From Escherichia coli (lineage in GTDB: Bacteria; Pseudomonadota; Gammaproteobacteria; Enterobacterales; Enterobacteriaceae): a stretch of 64,000 nucleotides of DNA. Shown in pieces: positions 28,849 through 36,823 of this stretch. The stretch lies in assembly GCF_022846255.1 (NCBI RefSeq), contig NZ_AP025682.1, one strand, 5' to 3'. Below the pieces are notes generated by a model. That model did not search any database and was not told the origin of the DNA. It worked only from the letters and a program-made list of their open reading frames with translations. The stretch's first letter is position 1, and each line of letters starts with the position of its first letter. The translations under genes were made by a program, and so were the position numbers.

Positions 28849-29200
28849 AACCACCTCAAATGTGATTCAAATAAGTCCTAAGTTTTAAATATATCAAAAA
28901 TTAATGGGAAACTCTTCGCGATTTATGATGTCTAACGGGCCATTTCATGTAACAGAACGTTTCCATACACCGCTATCCATCTAAATTTAAATCACTTTTT
29001 CAGAGAACTGCGTAAGTATTACGCATGTTTTCCCTGTCATTCATCCAGATTATTCCTAATCACCAGACTAATGATTCCATCAATCCTGGCGCATTTTAGT
29101 CAAAACGGGGGAAAATTTTTTCAACAAATGCTCAACCAGCATTGGGTATATCCAGTACACTCCACGCTTTACTTAGGTTTAGATATTTGTGGGAGAAAGG

Positions 29201-30088
29201 ATGCCTGGTTCATTACGTAAAATGCCGGTCTGGTTACCAATAGTCATATTGCTCGTTGCCATGGCGTCTATTCAGGGTGGAGCCTCGTTAGCTAAGTCAC
29301 TTTTTCCTCTGGTGGGCGCACCAGGGGTCACTGCGCTGCGTCTGGCATTAGGCACGCTGATCCTCATCGCGTTCTTTAAGCCATGGCGACTGCGCTTTGC
29401 CAAAGAGCAACGATTACCGCTGTTGTTTTACGGCGTTTCGCTGGGTGGAATGAATTATCTTTTTTATCTTTCTATTCAGACGGTACCGCTGGGTATTGCG
29501 GTGGCGCTGGAGTTCACCGGACCACTGGCGGTGGCACTGTTCTCTTCTCGTCGCCCGGTAGATTTCGTCTGGGTTGTGCTGGCGGTTCTTGGTCTGTGGT
29601 TCCTGCTACCGCTGGGGCAAGACGTTTCCCATGTCGATTTAACCGGCTGTGCGCTGGCACTGGGGGCCGGGGCTTGTTGGGCTATTTACATTTTAAGTGG
29701 GCAACGCGCAGGAGCGGAACATGGCCCTGCGACGGTGGCAATTGGTTCGTTGATTGCAGCGTTAATTTTCGTGCCAATTGGAGCGCTTCAGGCTGGTGAA
29801 GCACTCTGGCACTGGTCGGTTATTCCATTGGGTCTGGCTGTCGCTATTCTCTCGACCGCTCTGCCTTATTCGCTGGAAATGATTGCCCTCACCCGTTTGC
29901 CAACACGCACATTTGGTACGCTAATGAGCATGGAACCTGCGCTGGCTGCCGTTTCCGGGATGATTTTCCTCGGAGAAACACTGACACCCATACAGCTGCT
30001 GGCGCTCGGCGCTATCATCGCCGCTTCAATGGGTTCTACGCTGACAGTACGCAAAGAGAGCAAAATAAAAGAATTAGACATAAATTAA
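29201..30088 (+). CDS. rhtA: threonine/homoserine exporter RhtA (DMT superfamily, 295 aa)
   Basis: ORF track trimmed to MPGSLRKMPVW with GGGAGAAAGG RBS; 10-TM EamA-type. Confidence 0.9.
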   Translation: MPGSLRKMPVWLPIVILLVAMASIQGGASLAKSLFPLVGAPGVTALRLALGTLILIAFFKPWRLRFAKEQRLPLLFYGVSLGGMNYLFYLSIQTVPLGIAVALEFTGPLAVALFSSRRPVDFVWVVLAVLGLWFLLPLGQDVSHVDLTGCALALGAGACWAIYILSGQRAGAEHGPATVAIGSLIAALIFVPIGALQAGEALWHWSVIPLGLAVAILSTALPYSLEMIALTRLPTRTFGTLMSMEPALAAVSGMIFLGETLTPIQLLALGAIIAASMGSTLTVRKESKIKELDIN

Positions 30089-30213
30089 ATTTACATTTCT
30101 GCATGGTTATGCATAACCATGCAGATTTTCTCGCTACTTTTCCTCTACACCGTCTTTATATATCGAATTATGCAAAAGCATATTTATTCCGAAAATTCCT
30201 GGCGAGCAAATAA

Positions 30214-30891
<678 letters not shown>

Positions 30892-30929
30892 ATCCATCGC
30901 TGATGGTGCAGAACTTTAGTACACGATAA

Positions 30930-30965
30930 AAGCGGCTTCCTGACAGGAGGCCGTTTTGTTTTGTA
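30930..30965 (+). terminator. dps terminator hairpin plus T-tract
   Basis: ggcttcct...aggaggcc imperfect stem followed by ttttgttttg. Confidence 0.55.
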
Positions 30966-31107
30966 GCCCGCCTCAACGCACTTATTTAGTGCATCCATCT
31001 GCTATCCCCAGCTGGTTAAGTAAATTTTTTGTATCCACATCATCACACAATCGTTACATAAAGATTGTTTTTTCATCATGTTTTACGCTAAATAATCACT
31101 GTGTTGA

Positions 31108-31240
31108 GTGCACAATTTTAGCGCACCAGTTTGGTGCCCCAGAATGGTGCATCTTCAGGGTATTGCCCTATAAATCGTGCATCACGTTTTTGCCGCATCT
31201 CGAAAAATCAATGAGTTGCAAAACTGGCACGATTTTTTCA
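31108..31240 (+). promoter_or_regulatory. glnH regulatory region: NtrC-type sites and sigma54 promoter
   Basis: gcaccagtttggtgc palindrome (about 31123..31137) and overlapping tgcaccattctgggg-like half-sites; TGGCAC-N5-TTTCA at about 31225..31240, about 55 nt upstream of the glnH ATG. Confidence 0.7.
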
Positions 31241-31279
31241 TATATGTGAATGTCACGCAGGGGATCGTCCCGTGGATAG

Positions 31280-32041
<762 letters not shown>

Positions 32042-32069
32042 TAACGCTGCGCCTGTAAAGCGCACTGGC

Positions 32070-32135
32070 AGTTCCCTCTCCCCGCCGGGGAGAGGATTAG
32101 GGTGAAGGGCGCAAACCCGCTCCGGGGCCATTAAT
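32070..32135 (+). other. intercistronic GC-rich stem-loop(s) between glnH and glnP
   Basis: ccctctcccc-gcc-ggggagagg perfect 9-10 bp stem followed by a gggtgaagggcg...ccgctccggggcc segment. Confidence 0.6.
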
Positions 32136-32179
32136 TACCCTGAATTTGATTATTTACACCACGGTAACAGGAACAACAT

Positions 32180-32839
32180 ATGCAGTTTGACTGGAGTGCC
32201 ATCTGGCCTGCCATTCCGCTTCTGATTGAAGGTGCCAAAATGACCCTGTGGATTTCGGTCCTCGGTCTGGCTGGCGGTCTGGTGATCGGATTGTTGGCAG
32301 GTTTTGCACGCACCTTCGGTGGTTGGATAGCCAACCACGTCGCGCTGGTCTTTATTGAAGTGATCCGCGGCACACCTATCGTCGTCCAGGTGATGTTTAT
32401 CTATTTCGCCCTGCCGATGGCGTTTAACGATTTACGCATCGACCCGTTTACTGCGGCGGTGGTCACCATCATGATCAACTCCGGCGCGTACATTGCGGAA
32501 ATCACGCGTGGTGCGGTGCTGTCTATTCACAAAGGTTTTCGTGAAGCAGGACTGGCGCTCGGTCTTTCACGTTGGGAAACCATTCGCTACGTCATTTTAC
32601 CGCTGGCACTGCGTCGTATGCTGCCGCCGCTGGGTAACCAGTGGATCATCAGCATTAAAGACACTTCGCTGTTTATTGTTATCGGCGTGGCTGAGCTGAC
32701 CCGTCAGGGGCAAGAAATTATTGCCGGTAACTTCCGCGCCCTGGAGATCTGGAGCGCCGTGGCGGTGTTCTATCTGATTATTACCCTGGTGCTGAGCTTT
32801 ATTCTGCGTCGTCTGGAAAGAAGGATGAAAATCCTGTGA
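32180..32839 (+). CDS. glnP: glutamine ABC transporter permease GlnP (219 aa)
   Basis: ORF track; polar amino-acid permease. Confidence 0.95.
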
Positions 32840-33558
32840 TTGAATTTAAAAACGTCTCCAAGCATTTTGGTCCAACCCAGGTGCTGCACAATATCGATTT
32901 GAACATTGCTCAGGGCGAAGTCGTGGTGATTATCGGGCCGTCCGGTTCCGGTAAATCGACCCTGCTGCGCTGCATCAACAAACTGGAAGAAATCACCTCC
33001 GGCGATCTGATTGTCGATGGCCTGAAGGTTAACGATCCGAAAGTTGATGAGCGCCTGATTCGCCAGGAAGCGGGTATGGTGTTCCAGCAGTTTTACCTCT
33101 TCCCGCATCTGACGGCGCTGGAAAACGTCATGTTTGGCCCGCTACGCGTGCGTGGCGCGAATAAAGAAGAGGCGGAAAAACTGGCGCGTGAGCTGCTGGC
33201 GAAAGTCGGTCTGGCAGAGCGTGCACATCACTACCCTTCCGAACTTTCTGGTGGTCAACAGCAGCGTGTGGCGATTGCCCGCGCGCTGGCGGTGAAGCCG
33301 AAAATGATGCTGTTTGATGAACCGACTTCCGCTCTTGACCCGGAACTGCGCCATGAAGTGCTGAAGGTTATGCAGGATCTGGCTGAAGAAGGGATGACGA
33401 TGGTGATCGTGACCCACGAAATCGGTTTTGCCGAGAAAGTAGCTTCGCGCCTGATCTTTATCGACAAAGGCCGGATTGCAGAAGATGGCGATCCGCAGGT
33501 GTTGATCAAGAACCCGCCGAGCCAGCGCTTGCAGGAATTTTTGCAGCACGTCTCTTAA
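32836..33558 (+). CDS. glnQ: glutamine ABC transporter ATPase GlnQ (240 aa), GTG start overlapping glnP stop
   Basis: ORF track; GPSGSGKST Walker A, LSGGQQQR signature. Confidence 0.95.
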
Positions 33559-33565
33559 CTTCTCT

Positions 33566-33591
33566 GCCTCCCTTTCCCCCGAAAGGGAGGC
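33566..33591 (+). terminator. strong hairpin 3' of glnQ
   Basis: 11-bp stem gcctccctttc / gaaagggaggc; weak T-tract. Confidence 0.5.
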
Positions 33592-33674
33592 ACACCAGAT
33601 TCCTCTCATTTAAAATCGCCCAGCCTCCAGCATCTATACTTATCTTTTTGCTCTGTTTTCTCACTGGAGGAGTC

Positions 33675-35900
33675 ATGCGGTGGATCCTGTTCATCCTCTT
33701 CTGCCTGTTGGGCGCACCTGCCCACGCGGTATCCATACCCGGCGTTACAACCACAACGACAACGGACTCAACGACTGAACCGGCCCCGGAACCGGATATC
33801 GAACAAAAAAAAGCGGCCTATGGCGCACTGGCGGATGTGCTGGATAATGACACCTCGCGTAAAGAGTTGATCGACCAGTTGCGCACCGTCGCCGCGACGC
33901 CCCCTGCGGAACCCGTACCGAAGATCGTGCCGCCGACGCTGGTTGAAGAGCAAACCGTGCTGCAAAAGGTCACCGAAGTCAGCCGCCATTATGGTGAAGC
34001 CCTTTCCGCCCGCTTCGGGCAACTTTATCGCAATATCACCGGCTCCCCGCATAAGCCGTTTAATCCACAAACCTTCAGCAATGCGCTGACCCACTTTTCA
34101 ATGTTAGCGGTATTAGTGTTTGGTTTTTACTGGCTGATTCGTCTGTGCGCACTGCCGCTGTATCGCAAAATGGGCCAGTGGGCGCGGCAAAAAAATCGTG
34201 AGCGCAGTAACTGGTTGCAGCTTCCGGCGATGATCATCGGGGCGTTTATTATCGACCTGCTGTTACTGGCACTGACATTATTTGTCGGCCAGGTATTAAG
34301 CGACAACCTGAATGCGGGCAGTCGCACCATCGCTTTCCAACAAAGTTTGTTTCTCAACGCCTTTGCCCTGATTGAATTTTTCAAAGCCGTACTACGCCTG
34401 ATTTTTTGCCCAAACGTGGCTGAACTGCGCCCGTTCACGATTCATGACGAGACCGCCCGTTACTGGAGTCGTCGCCTGAGCTGGTTAAGCAGCCTGATTG
34501 GCTATGGTCTGATTGTGGCTGTGCCGATTATCTCTAATCAGGTGAATGTACAGATAGGTGCGCTGGCAAACGTCATCATTATGCTGTGCATGACCGTCTG
34601 GGCGTTGTACCTGATTTTTCGTAATAAAAAAGAGATCACCCAGCATTTGCTCAACTTTGCGGAGCATTCGCTGGCCTTTTTCAGCCTGTTTATCCGCGCC
34701 TTTGCGCTGGTGTGGCACTGGCTGGCAAGCGCCTATTTTATCGTGCTGTTTTTCTTTTCGTTGTTCGATCCGGGCAACAGCCTGAAATTTATGATGGGTG
34801 CAACGGTGCGCAGCCTGGCGATTATTGGTATCGCAGCATTTGTTTCCGGTATGTTTTCCCGCTGGCTGGCAAAAACCATCACCCTCTCGCCACATACTCA
34901 GCGTAACTATCCAGAACTGCAAAAACGGCTGAATGGCTGGCTTTCGGCGGCGCTGAAAACGGCGCGTATTCTGACCGTCTGCGTGGCGGTAATGTTGCTG
35001 TTGAGCGCATGGGGATTGTTCGATTTCTGGAACTGGCTGCAAAACGGCGCGGGGCAGAAAACCGTAGATATCCTGATCCGTATCGCACTCATTCTTTTCT
35101 TCTCGGCGGTTGGCTGGACGGTGCTCGCCAGTTTGATCGAAAACCGGCTGGCTTCGGATATTCATGGCCGCCCGCTACCCAGCGCCCGTACGCGAACCCT
35201 GCTGACGCTGTTCCGTAACGCGCTGGCGGTGATTATCAGTACCATCACCATCATGATTGTGTTGTCGGAAATCGGCGTCAATATCGCGCCATTGCTGGCA
35301 GGTGCCGGGGCATTAGGTCTGGCTATCTCGTTTGGTTCGCAAACGCTGGTGAAAGATATCATTACCGGAGTATTTATTCAGTTTGAAAACGGCATGAACA
35401 CTGGAGATTTGGTGACTATCGGGCCGTTGACCGGCACTGTGGAACGGATGTCGATTCGCTCCGTGGGCGTGCGCCAGGATACCGGGGCGTATCACATCAT
35501 TCCGTGGTCTTCGATAACCACCTTTGCTAACTTCGTCCGCGGTATTGGTTCGGTAGTGGCAAATTATGATGTTGATCGCCATGAAGATGCTGATAAAGCC
35601 AATCAGGCACTGAAAGATGCGGTAGCGGAATTAATGGAAAACGAAGAAATTCGCGGGCTGGTTATTGGTGAACCGAACTTTGCCGGGATTGTCGGCTTAA
35701 GCAATACCGCGTTTACACTGCGTGTTTCGTTCACCACGCTGCCACTCAAACAGTGGACGGTCCGCTTTGCCCTCGACAGCCAGGTGAAAAAACATTTCGA
35801 CCTGGCGGGTGTTCGCGCGCCGGTGCAGACTTATCAGGTGCTGCCAGCTCCGGGCGCGGCCCCGGCTGAACCGTTGCCGCCGGGGGAGCCAACGCTTTAA
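33675..35900 (+). CDS. ybiO: MscS-family mechanosensitive channel YbiO (741 aa)
   Basis: ORF track trimmed to [18 protein letters not shown] (signal peptide, GGAGGAG RBS); multiple TM helices plus MscS C-terminal domain. Confidence 0.9.
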
Positions 35901-36823
35901 CGCTGGCGATTGACAAAACGGCGGCGCTGCTCGTCGTTCATAAAGGTCCAGGCTATAAAGCGGCTCTGCTTTTGCCCCTGGGCCATCTCTTTTTTTACCA
36001 CCTTCACCGCACCTACGTCCGTCAGAGCACGATACAACGGCGGTAAGTTTTCACCACGAGATACCAGCGAGGTAAACCACATCACCTGCTTCGCGAAGCC
36101 TTTGCTCTCTTCAATCATCTTTTTGATAAAAGCGACCTCACCGCCTTCACACCACAACTCCTGTTGCTGACCACCAAAGTTCAGTGCATCGTCTTTGTTC
36201 AGCCCCAGGTTACGGCGTTTACGTTCACTACCTGCCCGTGCCGCAGCGGCGGAATCGTGGAATGGCGGGTTACACAAGGTCGCATCGTATTGCTCGTTTT
36301 TATGGATGATGCCGTTAAAAATCGCCCCACTCTCTTTTTGCCGACGCAGACGAATAGCGCGGTTAAGCCCCGGATTAGCACTGATGATCGCCTGCGCACT
36401 GCTTAACGCCTGGCTGCTGGTTTCACTACCGGTAAAACGCCAGCCATATTCATGTACGCCAATCAGCGGATAAATACAGTTCGCACCAACGCCGATATCC
36501 AGAATGCTGGCATTAGCTGGAATTGTTCCGCTTGCTTCAGCCAGTAAATCGGCAAGGTGATGAATATAATCCGCCCGGCCCGGTACTGGCGGGCAGAGAA
36601 AACCGTCCGGGATATCCCAGTTCGCTACGGCGTAAAAATGGGCCAGCAACGCCTTATTGAGCGCCTTCACCGCCAGCGGATTGGCAAAGTCTACGCTTTG
36701 CTCCCCGGTGGGTGTAAGCGTGAGGAATTGCCTGAGTTCAGGATTGACCTGACAAAGCGTGGCGAGATCGTAGCGGCTGTGATGACGGTTGCGCGGATGC
36801 AACCCCGGTTTCTGGGCGGACAT
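35897..36823 (-). CDS. rlmF: 23S rRNA m6A1618 methyltransferase RlmF (308 aa)
   Basis: ORF track trimmed to [20 protein letters not shown]; NPPF motif (LCNPPFH). Confidence 0.9.

Follow-up and report, generated by a model that had tools for sequence, protein, structure and literature searches.

A BoxC repeat hairpin in the glnH-glnP spacer of Escherichia coli and its possible role in setting an RNA 3' end

Between glnH and glnP of Escherichia coli lies a GC-rich stem-loop, and the question that it raises is what kind of element it is and whether it acts on the operon mRNA, on the DNA or on neither. We analysed this locus in a 64,000-nt stretch of E. coli DNA (hereafter the window), and comparisons with K-12 were made on NC_000913.3 (MG1655). 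A preliminary description of the window had placed the stem-loop between the two genes, and the list of open reading frames agrees: positions 32042-32179 are exactly the 138-nt spacer between the glnH stop codon (TAA, 32039-32041) and the glnP ATG at 32180. The 241 bases around the spacer have 100% identity to E. coli strain SK1144 and were found in 5420 of 5426 complete E. coli genomes, in 5401 of them with at least 80% query coverage; the BoxC repeat copy that we describe here occupies this spacer in nearly all E. coli genomes. The features of the locus are collected in Table 1.

Table 1. Features in and around the glnH-glnP spacer, in window coordinates
Feature	Position	Strand	Basis and remarks
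glnH CDS, periplasmic glutamine-binding protein	31295..32041	+	ORF list; RefSeq annotation of E. coli records that are identical or nearly so
Small 5-bp hairpin TGCGC/ctgtaaa/GCGCA	32048..32064	+	Read from sequence; strain-specific (some strains)
BoxC repeat unit, type A, ~54 nt	32060..32113	+	C-rich arm transcribed first; aligned with 10 K-12 copies; PMC4666352 (consensus, Table 1)
Watson-Crick hairpin of the BoxC unit	32075..32095	+	Sequence, fold, pattern search
Hairpin apex, equal to the 14-bp direct repeat TCCCCTCTGGGGAG flanking a ~40-kb island	32079..32092	+	Junctions in strain 23CRST013; island absent from the window
Position equivalent to the mapped K-12 RNA 3' end	32099	+	847200, minus strand; A of GGATTA, 4 nt after the stem
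Third G-rich block GGGTGAAGG	32100..32108	+	G-to-A change versus consensus GGGTGAGGG
Second small hairpin CCCG/ctc/CGGG	32116..32126	+	Sequence and fold
A+U-rich unpaired stretch	32130..32158	+	Sequence and fold; candidate endonuclease entry site
GlnZ sRNA seed target CCACGGTAAC	32159..32168	+	Published pairing with compensatory mutants; just 5' of the glnP Shine-Dalgarno
glnP Shine-Dalgarno AGGA	32169..32172	+	7 nt 5' of ATG 32180; conserved across 80 species
glnP CDS, permease	32180..32839	+	ORF list and RefSeq annotation
glnQ CDS	32836-33558	+	Overlaps glnP by 4 nt

The stem had been described as perfect, which is right, and its C-rich arm had been written with ten letters, one more than pairs. 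The arm CCTCTCCCC (32075-32083) pairs without mismatch with the arm GGGGAGAGG (32087-32095) around a GCC loop (32084-32086), and the stem has 9 bp because the tenth C (32074) stands opposite A32096 and is unpaired. The energy of the isolated hairpin as RNA is -18.3 kcal/mol, and in the folding of the spacer, a check that had been suggested beforehand, the hairpin appears in both the minimum-energy and the centroid structures. A change of GGGGAGAGG to GCGCAGAGG is an example of a substitution that would break this stem. An origin of the hairpin by chance is ruled out by pattern shuffles and Markov simulations: CCTCTCCCN5GGGAGAGG has a single match in the window and no match in 100 shuffles, and perfect stems of at least 9 bp with loops of 3-8 nt occur in the window as 24 stem/loop combinations at 14 sites, about 16-fold more than the mean of 1.5 in first-order Markov simulations. 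The BoxC hairpin is therefore part of a non-random population of hairpins in the window.

Further GC-rich pairing, also mentioned in the preliminary description, does exist at 32116-32126 (CCCG/CGGG, with GGC/GCC on either side), but the helix is short, and the divergent E. coli-like genome E69 has not kept it. The folding advantage of the whole spacer over its shuffles is modest (z = -1.86), and what stands out is the BoxC hairpin rather than an extended structured domain. The small hairpin at the glnH end of the spacer was flagged on the minus strand in the terminator scan and is absent in K-12, where the corresponding arms are TACAC and ACGCA.

We are highly confident that the stem-loop is a copy, type A and slightly degenerate, of BoxC, a GC-rich dispersed element of E. 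coli of about 56 bp that comprises a hairpin and a third G-rich block and is also named PIT (potential intrastrand triplex) or TMECO (Bergler 1992; Bachellier 1990s; Hoyne and Maher 2000/2002; all as cited in PMC4666352). The motif had been likened beforehand to a recurring GC-rich intergenic hairpin family other than REP, and the published consensus together with an alignment of 10 copies gives this family its name. It had escaped that description that the hairpin makes up two thirds of a three-block repeat of the triplex type. The strict TMECO consensus is CCCTCNCCC N3-6 GGGNGAGGG N3 GGGNGAGGG, and the second loop is TTA in type A and CCG in type B (PMC4666352). In the window the sequence reads CCCTCTCCC-cgccg-GGGAGAGGa-TTA-GGGTGAaGG, so that the second loop (32097-32099) is that of type A, and there are two departures from the strict consensus, namely A as the final base of block 2 and GAAGG in block 3. 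The K-12 copy has one mismatch to the consensus and the orthologue in E69 (L005) has none; because the latter fits the strict pattern, the window copy is a degenerate member by descent. Between the K-12 and window copies there are four differences, three in the loop and one in block 3, and the stems are identical. The commonest BoxC type, 'A mm', has a G-A mismatch in its stem, whereas the glnH-glnP stem is perfect, with T at position 6.

The similarity to the family covers the whole unit. When the window copy was aligned with 10 other K-12 copies at their published coordinates, blocks and flanks corresponded from GCGCAC..CAGT, 15 nt 5' of block 1, to just beyond block 3. The 5' flank GCGCAC(T/G)G(G/A)CAGT(T/C)CCCTC is common to the aligned K-12 copies, the flank of the E69 copy is identical to that of the adk-hemH copy, and on the 3' side GGGGCGCAAAC is common to the glnH-glnP and lldD copies; the resulting unit of ~54 nt (32060-32113) agrees with the 56 bp of the literature. 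The element is intergenic and multi-copy, with one copy in the window, in the glnH-glnP spacer, and 23 strict copies in MG1655. Its K-12 counterpart is absent from these 23 strict TMECOs, none of which lies near 847 kb in Table 1 of PMC4666352, most likely because block 2 ends in A; the older literature counted 32 BoxC copies of 56 bp, which may leave room for degenerate members. Neither glnH or glnP nor the sequence or coordinates of the K-12 copy occur in the text and accessible supplements of Holder et al. (PMC4666352).

Two other identities were considered and rejected. The REP consensus (GCCGGATG ... CATCCGGC, tail CCTAC; an imperfect palindrome of ~35 nt) is not in the spacer, and a G-quadruplex would need loops of 9 and 14 nt, while published NMR on the family shows a triplex. 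No Rfam family matches the spacer, and within 29000-36000 only weak chance matches were obtained elsewhere. A search with the 39-nt BoxC core gave many near-identical matches (87-94% identity, up to 19 per replicon) on plasmids and chromids of Azospirillum, Rhizobium, Sinorhizobium and Shinella, and these alpha-proteobacterial matches fit the published presence of the BoxC-type motif in >260 genomes. Within K-12, BoxC copies also lie between cistrons of other operons, at pstA-pstB (L091) and cstA-ybdD (L095), the former belonging to another ABC-transporter operon, pstSCAB.

The preliminary description had staked its proposal on RNA 3' ends being mapped in this region, and a strong one is present in K-12 Term-seq data, 4 nt past the stem. 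It maps to 847200 on the minus strand, the strand of glnH, and two sheets give it 30,331.8 and 130,459 reads (PMC7815308), the same order as the counts there for the neighbouring dps terminator (89,018 and 681,605 reads). Of the three growth-condition sheets, at least two list this end, which belongs to the K-12 allele and not to the window allele; Adams et al. (PMC7815308) class it as 'orphan', without discussion. Each entry of these tables prints 61 nt, with base 51 as the 3' end, a convention that we verified on thrL, and the assignment of 847200 to window position 32099 is supported by this convention and independently by coordinate mapping. In the K-12 allele, an RNA 3' end occurs in vivo at the base of the hairpin, and the presumably stable RNA species ends before block 3.

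Such ends are also found at other BoxC copies in the tables of PMC7815308 (NC_000913.3 coordinates; loci L093, L094 and L095). Copies with perfect stems have 3' ends 3-5 nt past the stem at 3781065(+), which lies after lldD, at 3959467(-) and at 164636(+), and the copy after cstA has one 11 nt past its stem, at 632098(+). With 3' ends at five or more BoxC sites, a repeat so far treated purely as a DNA triplex has an activity at the level of RNA. The sense-orientation consensus of 'A mm', GGAGAGGGTTA, occurs in no Term-seq entry of PMC7815308, and several such copies downstream of genes, among them those of adk, tauD and zntA, lack a 3' end there. The 3' ends at BoxC copies are therefore not universal, and they may depend on a perfect stem and on transcription.

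The 3' end of the spacer holds a target of the small RNA GlnZ, another point absent from the preliminary description. Two groups, using compensatory mutants, have shown that GlnZ, which derives from the glnA 3' UTR, pairs just 5' of the glnP Shine-Dalgarno and represses glnP, and a pulse of GlnZ in Salmonella lowered glnP and glnQ more than fourfold, these being the only genes of the operon named among the repressed genes. Nucleotides 6-15 of K-12 GlnZ (GUUGCCGUGG) are complementary to 32159-32168; only this terminal 10-bp helix was used, which agrees with the published site, and a whole-length RNAduplex of GlnZ with the spacer was set aside because it permits huge loops. The core CACGGT of the target is kept in 75 of 80 enterobacterial spacers. 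The spacer consists of two modules, a 5' hairpin that probably defines a glnH-only RNA and a 3' sRNA target controlling glnPQ, and the A+U-rich stretch between them (32130-32158) is a plausible candidate for endonuclease entry. Hairpin and GlnZ target together would account for repression of glnPQ without loss of glnH mRNA.

As to how the RNA 3' end arises, we lean towards the explanation that the BoxC hairpin blocks 3'-to-5' exonucleases and defines the glnH 3' end. The copy would be transcribed within the glnHPQ mRNA, and only its 9-bp hairpin would matter there; block 3 should be irrelevant to the RNA because purine-motif triplexes do not form in RNA (PMC4666352). An endonucleolytic cut in the A+U-rich part of the spacer, or GlnZ-triggered decay of the glnPQ part, would probably come first. 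PNPase or RNase II would shorten the longer transcripts from their 3' ends and would halt at the hairpin, leaving an abundant glnH-only mRNA that ends 4 nt past the stem, and this mRNA might outlive the glnPQ part and help the cell to make more binding protein than membrane components. A longer life of glnH mRNA and an excess of GlnH over GlnPQ are what the analogy with REP in malE-malF suggests, and the lowering of glnP and glnQ by the GlnZ pulse in Salmonella is indirect evidence in the same direction.

Exonuclease stalling, rather than termination, is favoured as the probable source of the end because four kinds of evidence agree. The stem is followed by AUUAGGGUGA and has no U tract, and a hairpin with the tail ATTAGGGTGA lacks this feature of a Rho-independent terminator; the Rho table of PMC7815308 has no Rho-dependent (bicyclomycin-sensitive) region at glnH-glnP-glnQ (8465xx-8472xx); PIT elements had neither terminator nor promoter activity in earlier reporter tests, as summarised in PMC4666352; and PNPase or RNase II, by trimming, produces the steady-state 3' ends that directly follow U-less stem-loops (Dar and Sorek 2018, PMC6061677). 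A promoter and terminator scan of 32042-32179 likewise gave no plus-strand site. Four points weigh against exonuclease stalling. The Term-seq end comes from the K-12 allele, which is four positions off the window copy, though the stem is identical; PNPase and RNase II stall at distances that exceed an overhang of 3-5 nt; several consensus type-A copies downstream of genes, with a G-A mismatch in the stem, gave no 3' end; and BoxC copies are inconsistent in their orientation and distance to genes.

The preliminary description had held that ABC operons often carry a hairpin at this position, and this holds for glnH-glnP beyond E. coli. A scan with GlnP gave 80 loci from different enterobacterial species, from which 79 spacers were extracted; with that of the window, 80 were compared. 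These spacers are 63 to 466 nt long and unrelated in sequence apart from a conserved 3' end, yet all 80 fold better than their dinucleotide shuffles (median z -3.55; 75 below -2, none above -1), and every one has a single hairpin of -14.9 kcal/mol or stronger (median -20.7). The hairpins are of unrelated kinds. REP-like CCCGG...CCGGG(CCTAC) units are present in 39 spacers, their holders being Citrobacter, Salmonella, the Enterobacter cloacae group, E. albertii, E. whittamii and a genome labelled E. coli (L002). A GGGGCG/CGCCCC hairpin is present in 25 spacers, in 17 of them followed by a T run and thus terminator-like, and other hairpins with T runs are found in Klebsiella, Raoultella and Kluyvera. 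BoxC is restricted, among the 80, to the window and E69. The spacers of Serratia sp. H1w (L079, 232 nt) and Intestinirhabdus alba (L031, 466 nt) hold a sequence (CCCCAGGAGCTTAC...GTAAGTGACTGGGGTGAG) that we take to be ERIC/IRU-like; judged by its sequence, ERIC would be a fourth repeat family at this position.

That a hairpin has been kept at one position despite complete turnover of its sequence is, in our view, the strongest argument that the structure itself is selected. The spacer is in effect a natural experiment, in which the position has been kept in 80 species and the hairpin swapped among four unrelated repeat or terminator types. L002 (NZ_JAATUR010000020.1, labelled E. coli SCPM-O-B-8794) has a GlnP identical to that of the window and a 91-nt spacer with a REP-like hairpin, like E. 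albertii and E. whittamii; the genome either belongs to a cryptic lineage of Escherichia or carries an allele that is rare in E. coli. From TTTGATTATTTACACC (about 32146) onwards its spacer and that of E. coli are again homologous, so the BoxC-bearing segment has replaced a REP-bearing one. Among seven E. coli alleles, a small sample, the stem is identical, the loop is GCC, TAT or TCT, and block 3 shows a substitution or a 1-nt deletion.

The hairpin is also used at the DNA level. In E. coli 23CRST013 (L096, NZ_AP045773.1 1759500-1809000), ~40 kb of foreign DNA lies between glnH and glnP, with a tyrosine integrase adjoining glnH, sugar-utilisation cargo in the middle and, at the far end, a CP4-like module (DUF4942, CbtA/YeeU, RadC, antirestriction). 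The 14-bp sequence TCCCCTCTGGGGAG is present at both island junctions, and the same junction was found in 19 of 5426 complete E. coli genomes; a search for the island end at other BoxC copies or other sites found none, the full-coverage matches being only at the glnH-glnP junction of these 19 genomes. The hairpin apex is the attachment site for one island family, which is compatible with an RNA role in island-free strains.

These data bear on three other explanations. The hairpin might be a partial terminator, or attenuator, after whose stem some RNA polymerases stop, so that fewer transcripts reach glnPQ. A 3' end just 4 nt past a strong GC stem would suit this, as would the T run after the spacer hairpin in 26 of the 80 species (17 of the GGGGCG/CGCCCC, 7 of the CAGAGG and 2 of the CCCCAGC type), on which ground attenuation may be the ancestral function of the position. 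The attenuating option of the preliminary description is nevertheless probably wrong, since the tail is not a U tract, the plus-strand terminator scan is empty, no bicyclomycin-sensitive region was called and PIT elements showed no terminator activity in earlier tests; we judge attenuation improbable. It is somewhat less improbable, though still unlikely, that the element is a neutral passenger, a selfish or decaying repeat whose 3' end is a harmless decay intermediate without effect on expression. BoxC copies have no bias in orientation, gene distance or gene class, the triplex blocks of the glnH-glnP copy are degenerate, and spacer content turns over freely between species, all of which speaks for a passenger; against it, a hairpin in 80 of 80 spacers is difficult to account for unless hairpins are selected, the E. 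coli alleles examined differ in loop and block 3 but not in the stem, and the 3' end is abundant.

An action of the element as DNA, either through a triplex (H-DNA) or as a recombination or integration site, would make the RNA hairpin incidental. In vitro, TMECO oligonucleotides fold into stable intrastrand triplexes, and variation between strains is higher at TMECO loci (PMC4666352); the tyrosine-integrase island sits exactly in the hairpin apex, within its direct repeat. DMS footprinting, however, found no triplex in vivo (PMC4666352), the glnH-glnP copy, as read from its sequence, keeps 7 of the 9 canonical triads against 9 of 9 in the consensus, and the locus is intact in 5401 of 5426 genomes and therefore not an unstable site. 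Use as an attachment site, moreover, does not exclude an RNA role, and we hold a purely DNA-level function to be very improbable.

Several known systems resemble the locus to a different degree. With BoxC/PIT/TMECO it has in common the motif of three blocks, TTA as the second loop, the 5' flank, a place between genes and the occurrence in multiple copies in E. coli. The REP/BIME between malE and malF (Newbury et al. 1987, as cited in PMC6061677) is likewise a repeat hairpin directly after the gene of an ABC binding protein, with a 3' end at its base, but it belongs to another repeat family, and the glnH-glnP hairpin has no REP consensus; stabilisation of glnH would be an extension of that case by analogy. 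The U-less protective stem-loops of Dar and Sorek (2018, PMC6061677) likewise combine a stable stem that lacks a U tract with a 3' end just past it, yet they stand at the ends of transcription units after Rho termination, whereas the BoxC hairpin is inside an operon where no Rho region was called. The terminator-like spacer hairpins of Kosakonia, Buttiauxella, Cedecea, Leclercia and others occupy the same operon position with comparable stem strength; they are of the GGGGCG/CGCCCC type, 17 of 25 with a T run, and the E. coli element is a dispersed repeat without one.

The finding alone is of little weight: the repeat type is catalogued, no bacterial genome has been studied better, and textbooks describe hairpins downstream of binding-protein genes. 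The element itself is not new; new are only the RNA 3' ends at BoxC hairpins, the turnover of hairpins at one and the same place in the operon, and the attachment site of the island. Joining these, we tentatively put forward a wider proposal, which we regard as possible but doubtful: BoxC copies with perfect stems may be used as RNA elements, acting like REP as exonuclease barriers that set mRNA 3' ends, and the glnH-glnP copy may have been recruited in place of an earlier REP or terminator hairpin that tuned the ratio of binding protein to permease, the same hairpin being the attachment site of the ~40-kb island. Since the orientation of BoxC copies and their distance to genes are inconsistent, without bias for gene class, any RNA role would be a local use and not a family-wide function. 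If the proposal is true, BoxC, seen for 30 years as a DNA triplex motif without function, gains a role in RNA; in the literature on intrastrand triplexes and PIT, we found nothing on function after 2015, and searches on a glnHPQ hairpin gave nothing relevant.

Two further observations concern the outer parts of the operon. The Term-seq tables have a 3' end with 47,250 reads at the equivalent of window position 31242 (K-12 848057, minus strand), which is inside the glnH 5' leader, 53 nt 5' of the start codon, and could reflect a leader attenuator or a short leader RNA. At the other end, starting 7 nt past the glnQ stop codon, a perfect 12-bp hairpin TGCCTCCCTTTC/CCCC/GAAAGGGAGGCA occupies 33565-33592 of the window, and as it has no T run, the operon end also resembles a U-less protective stem-loop.
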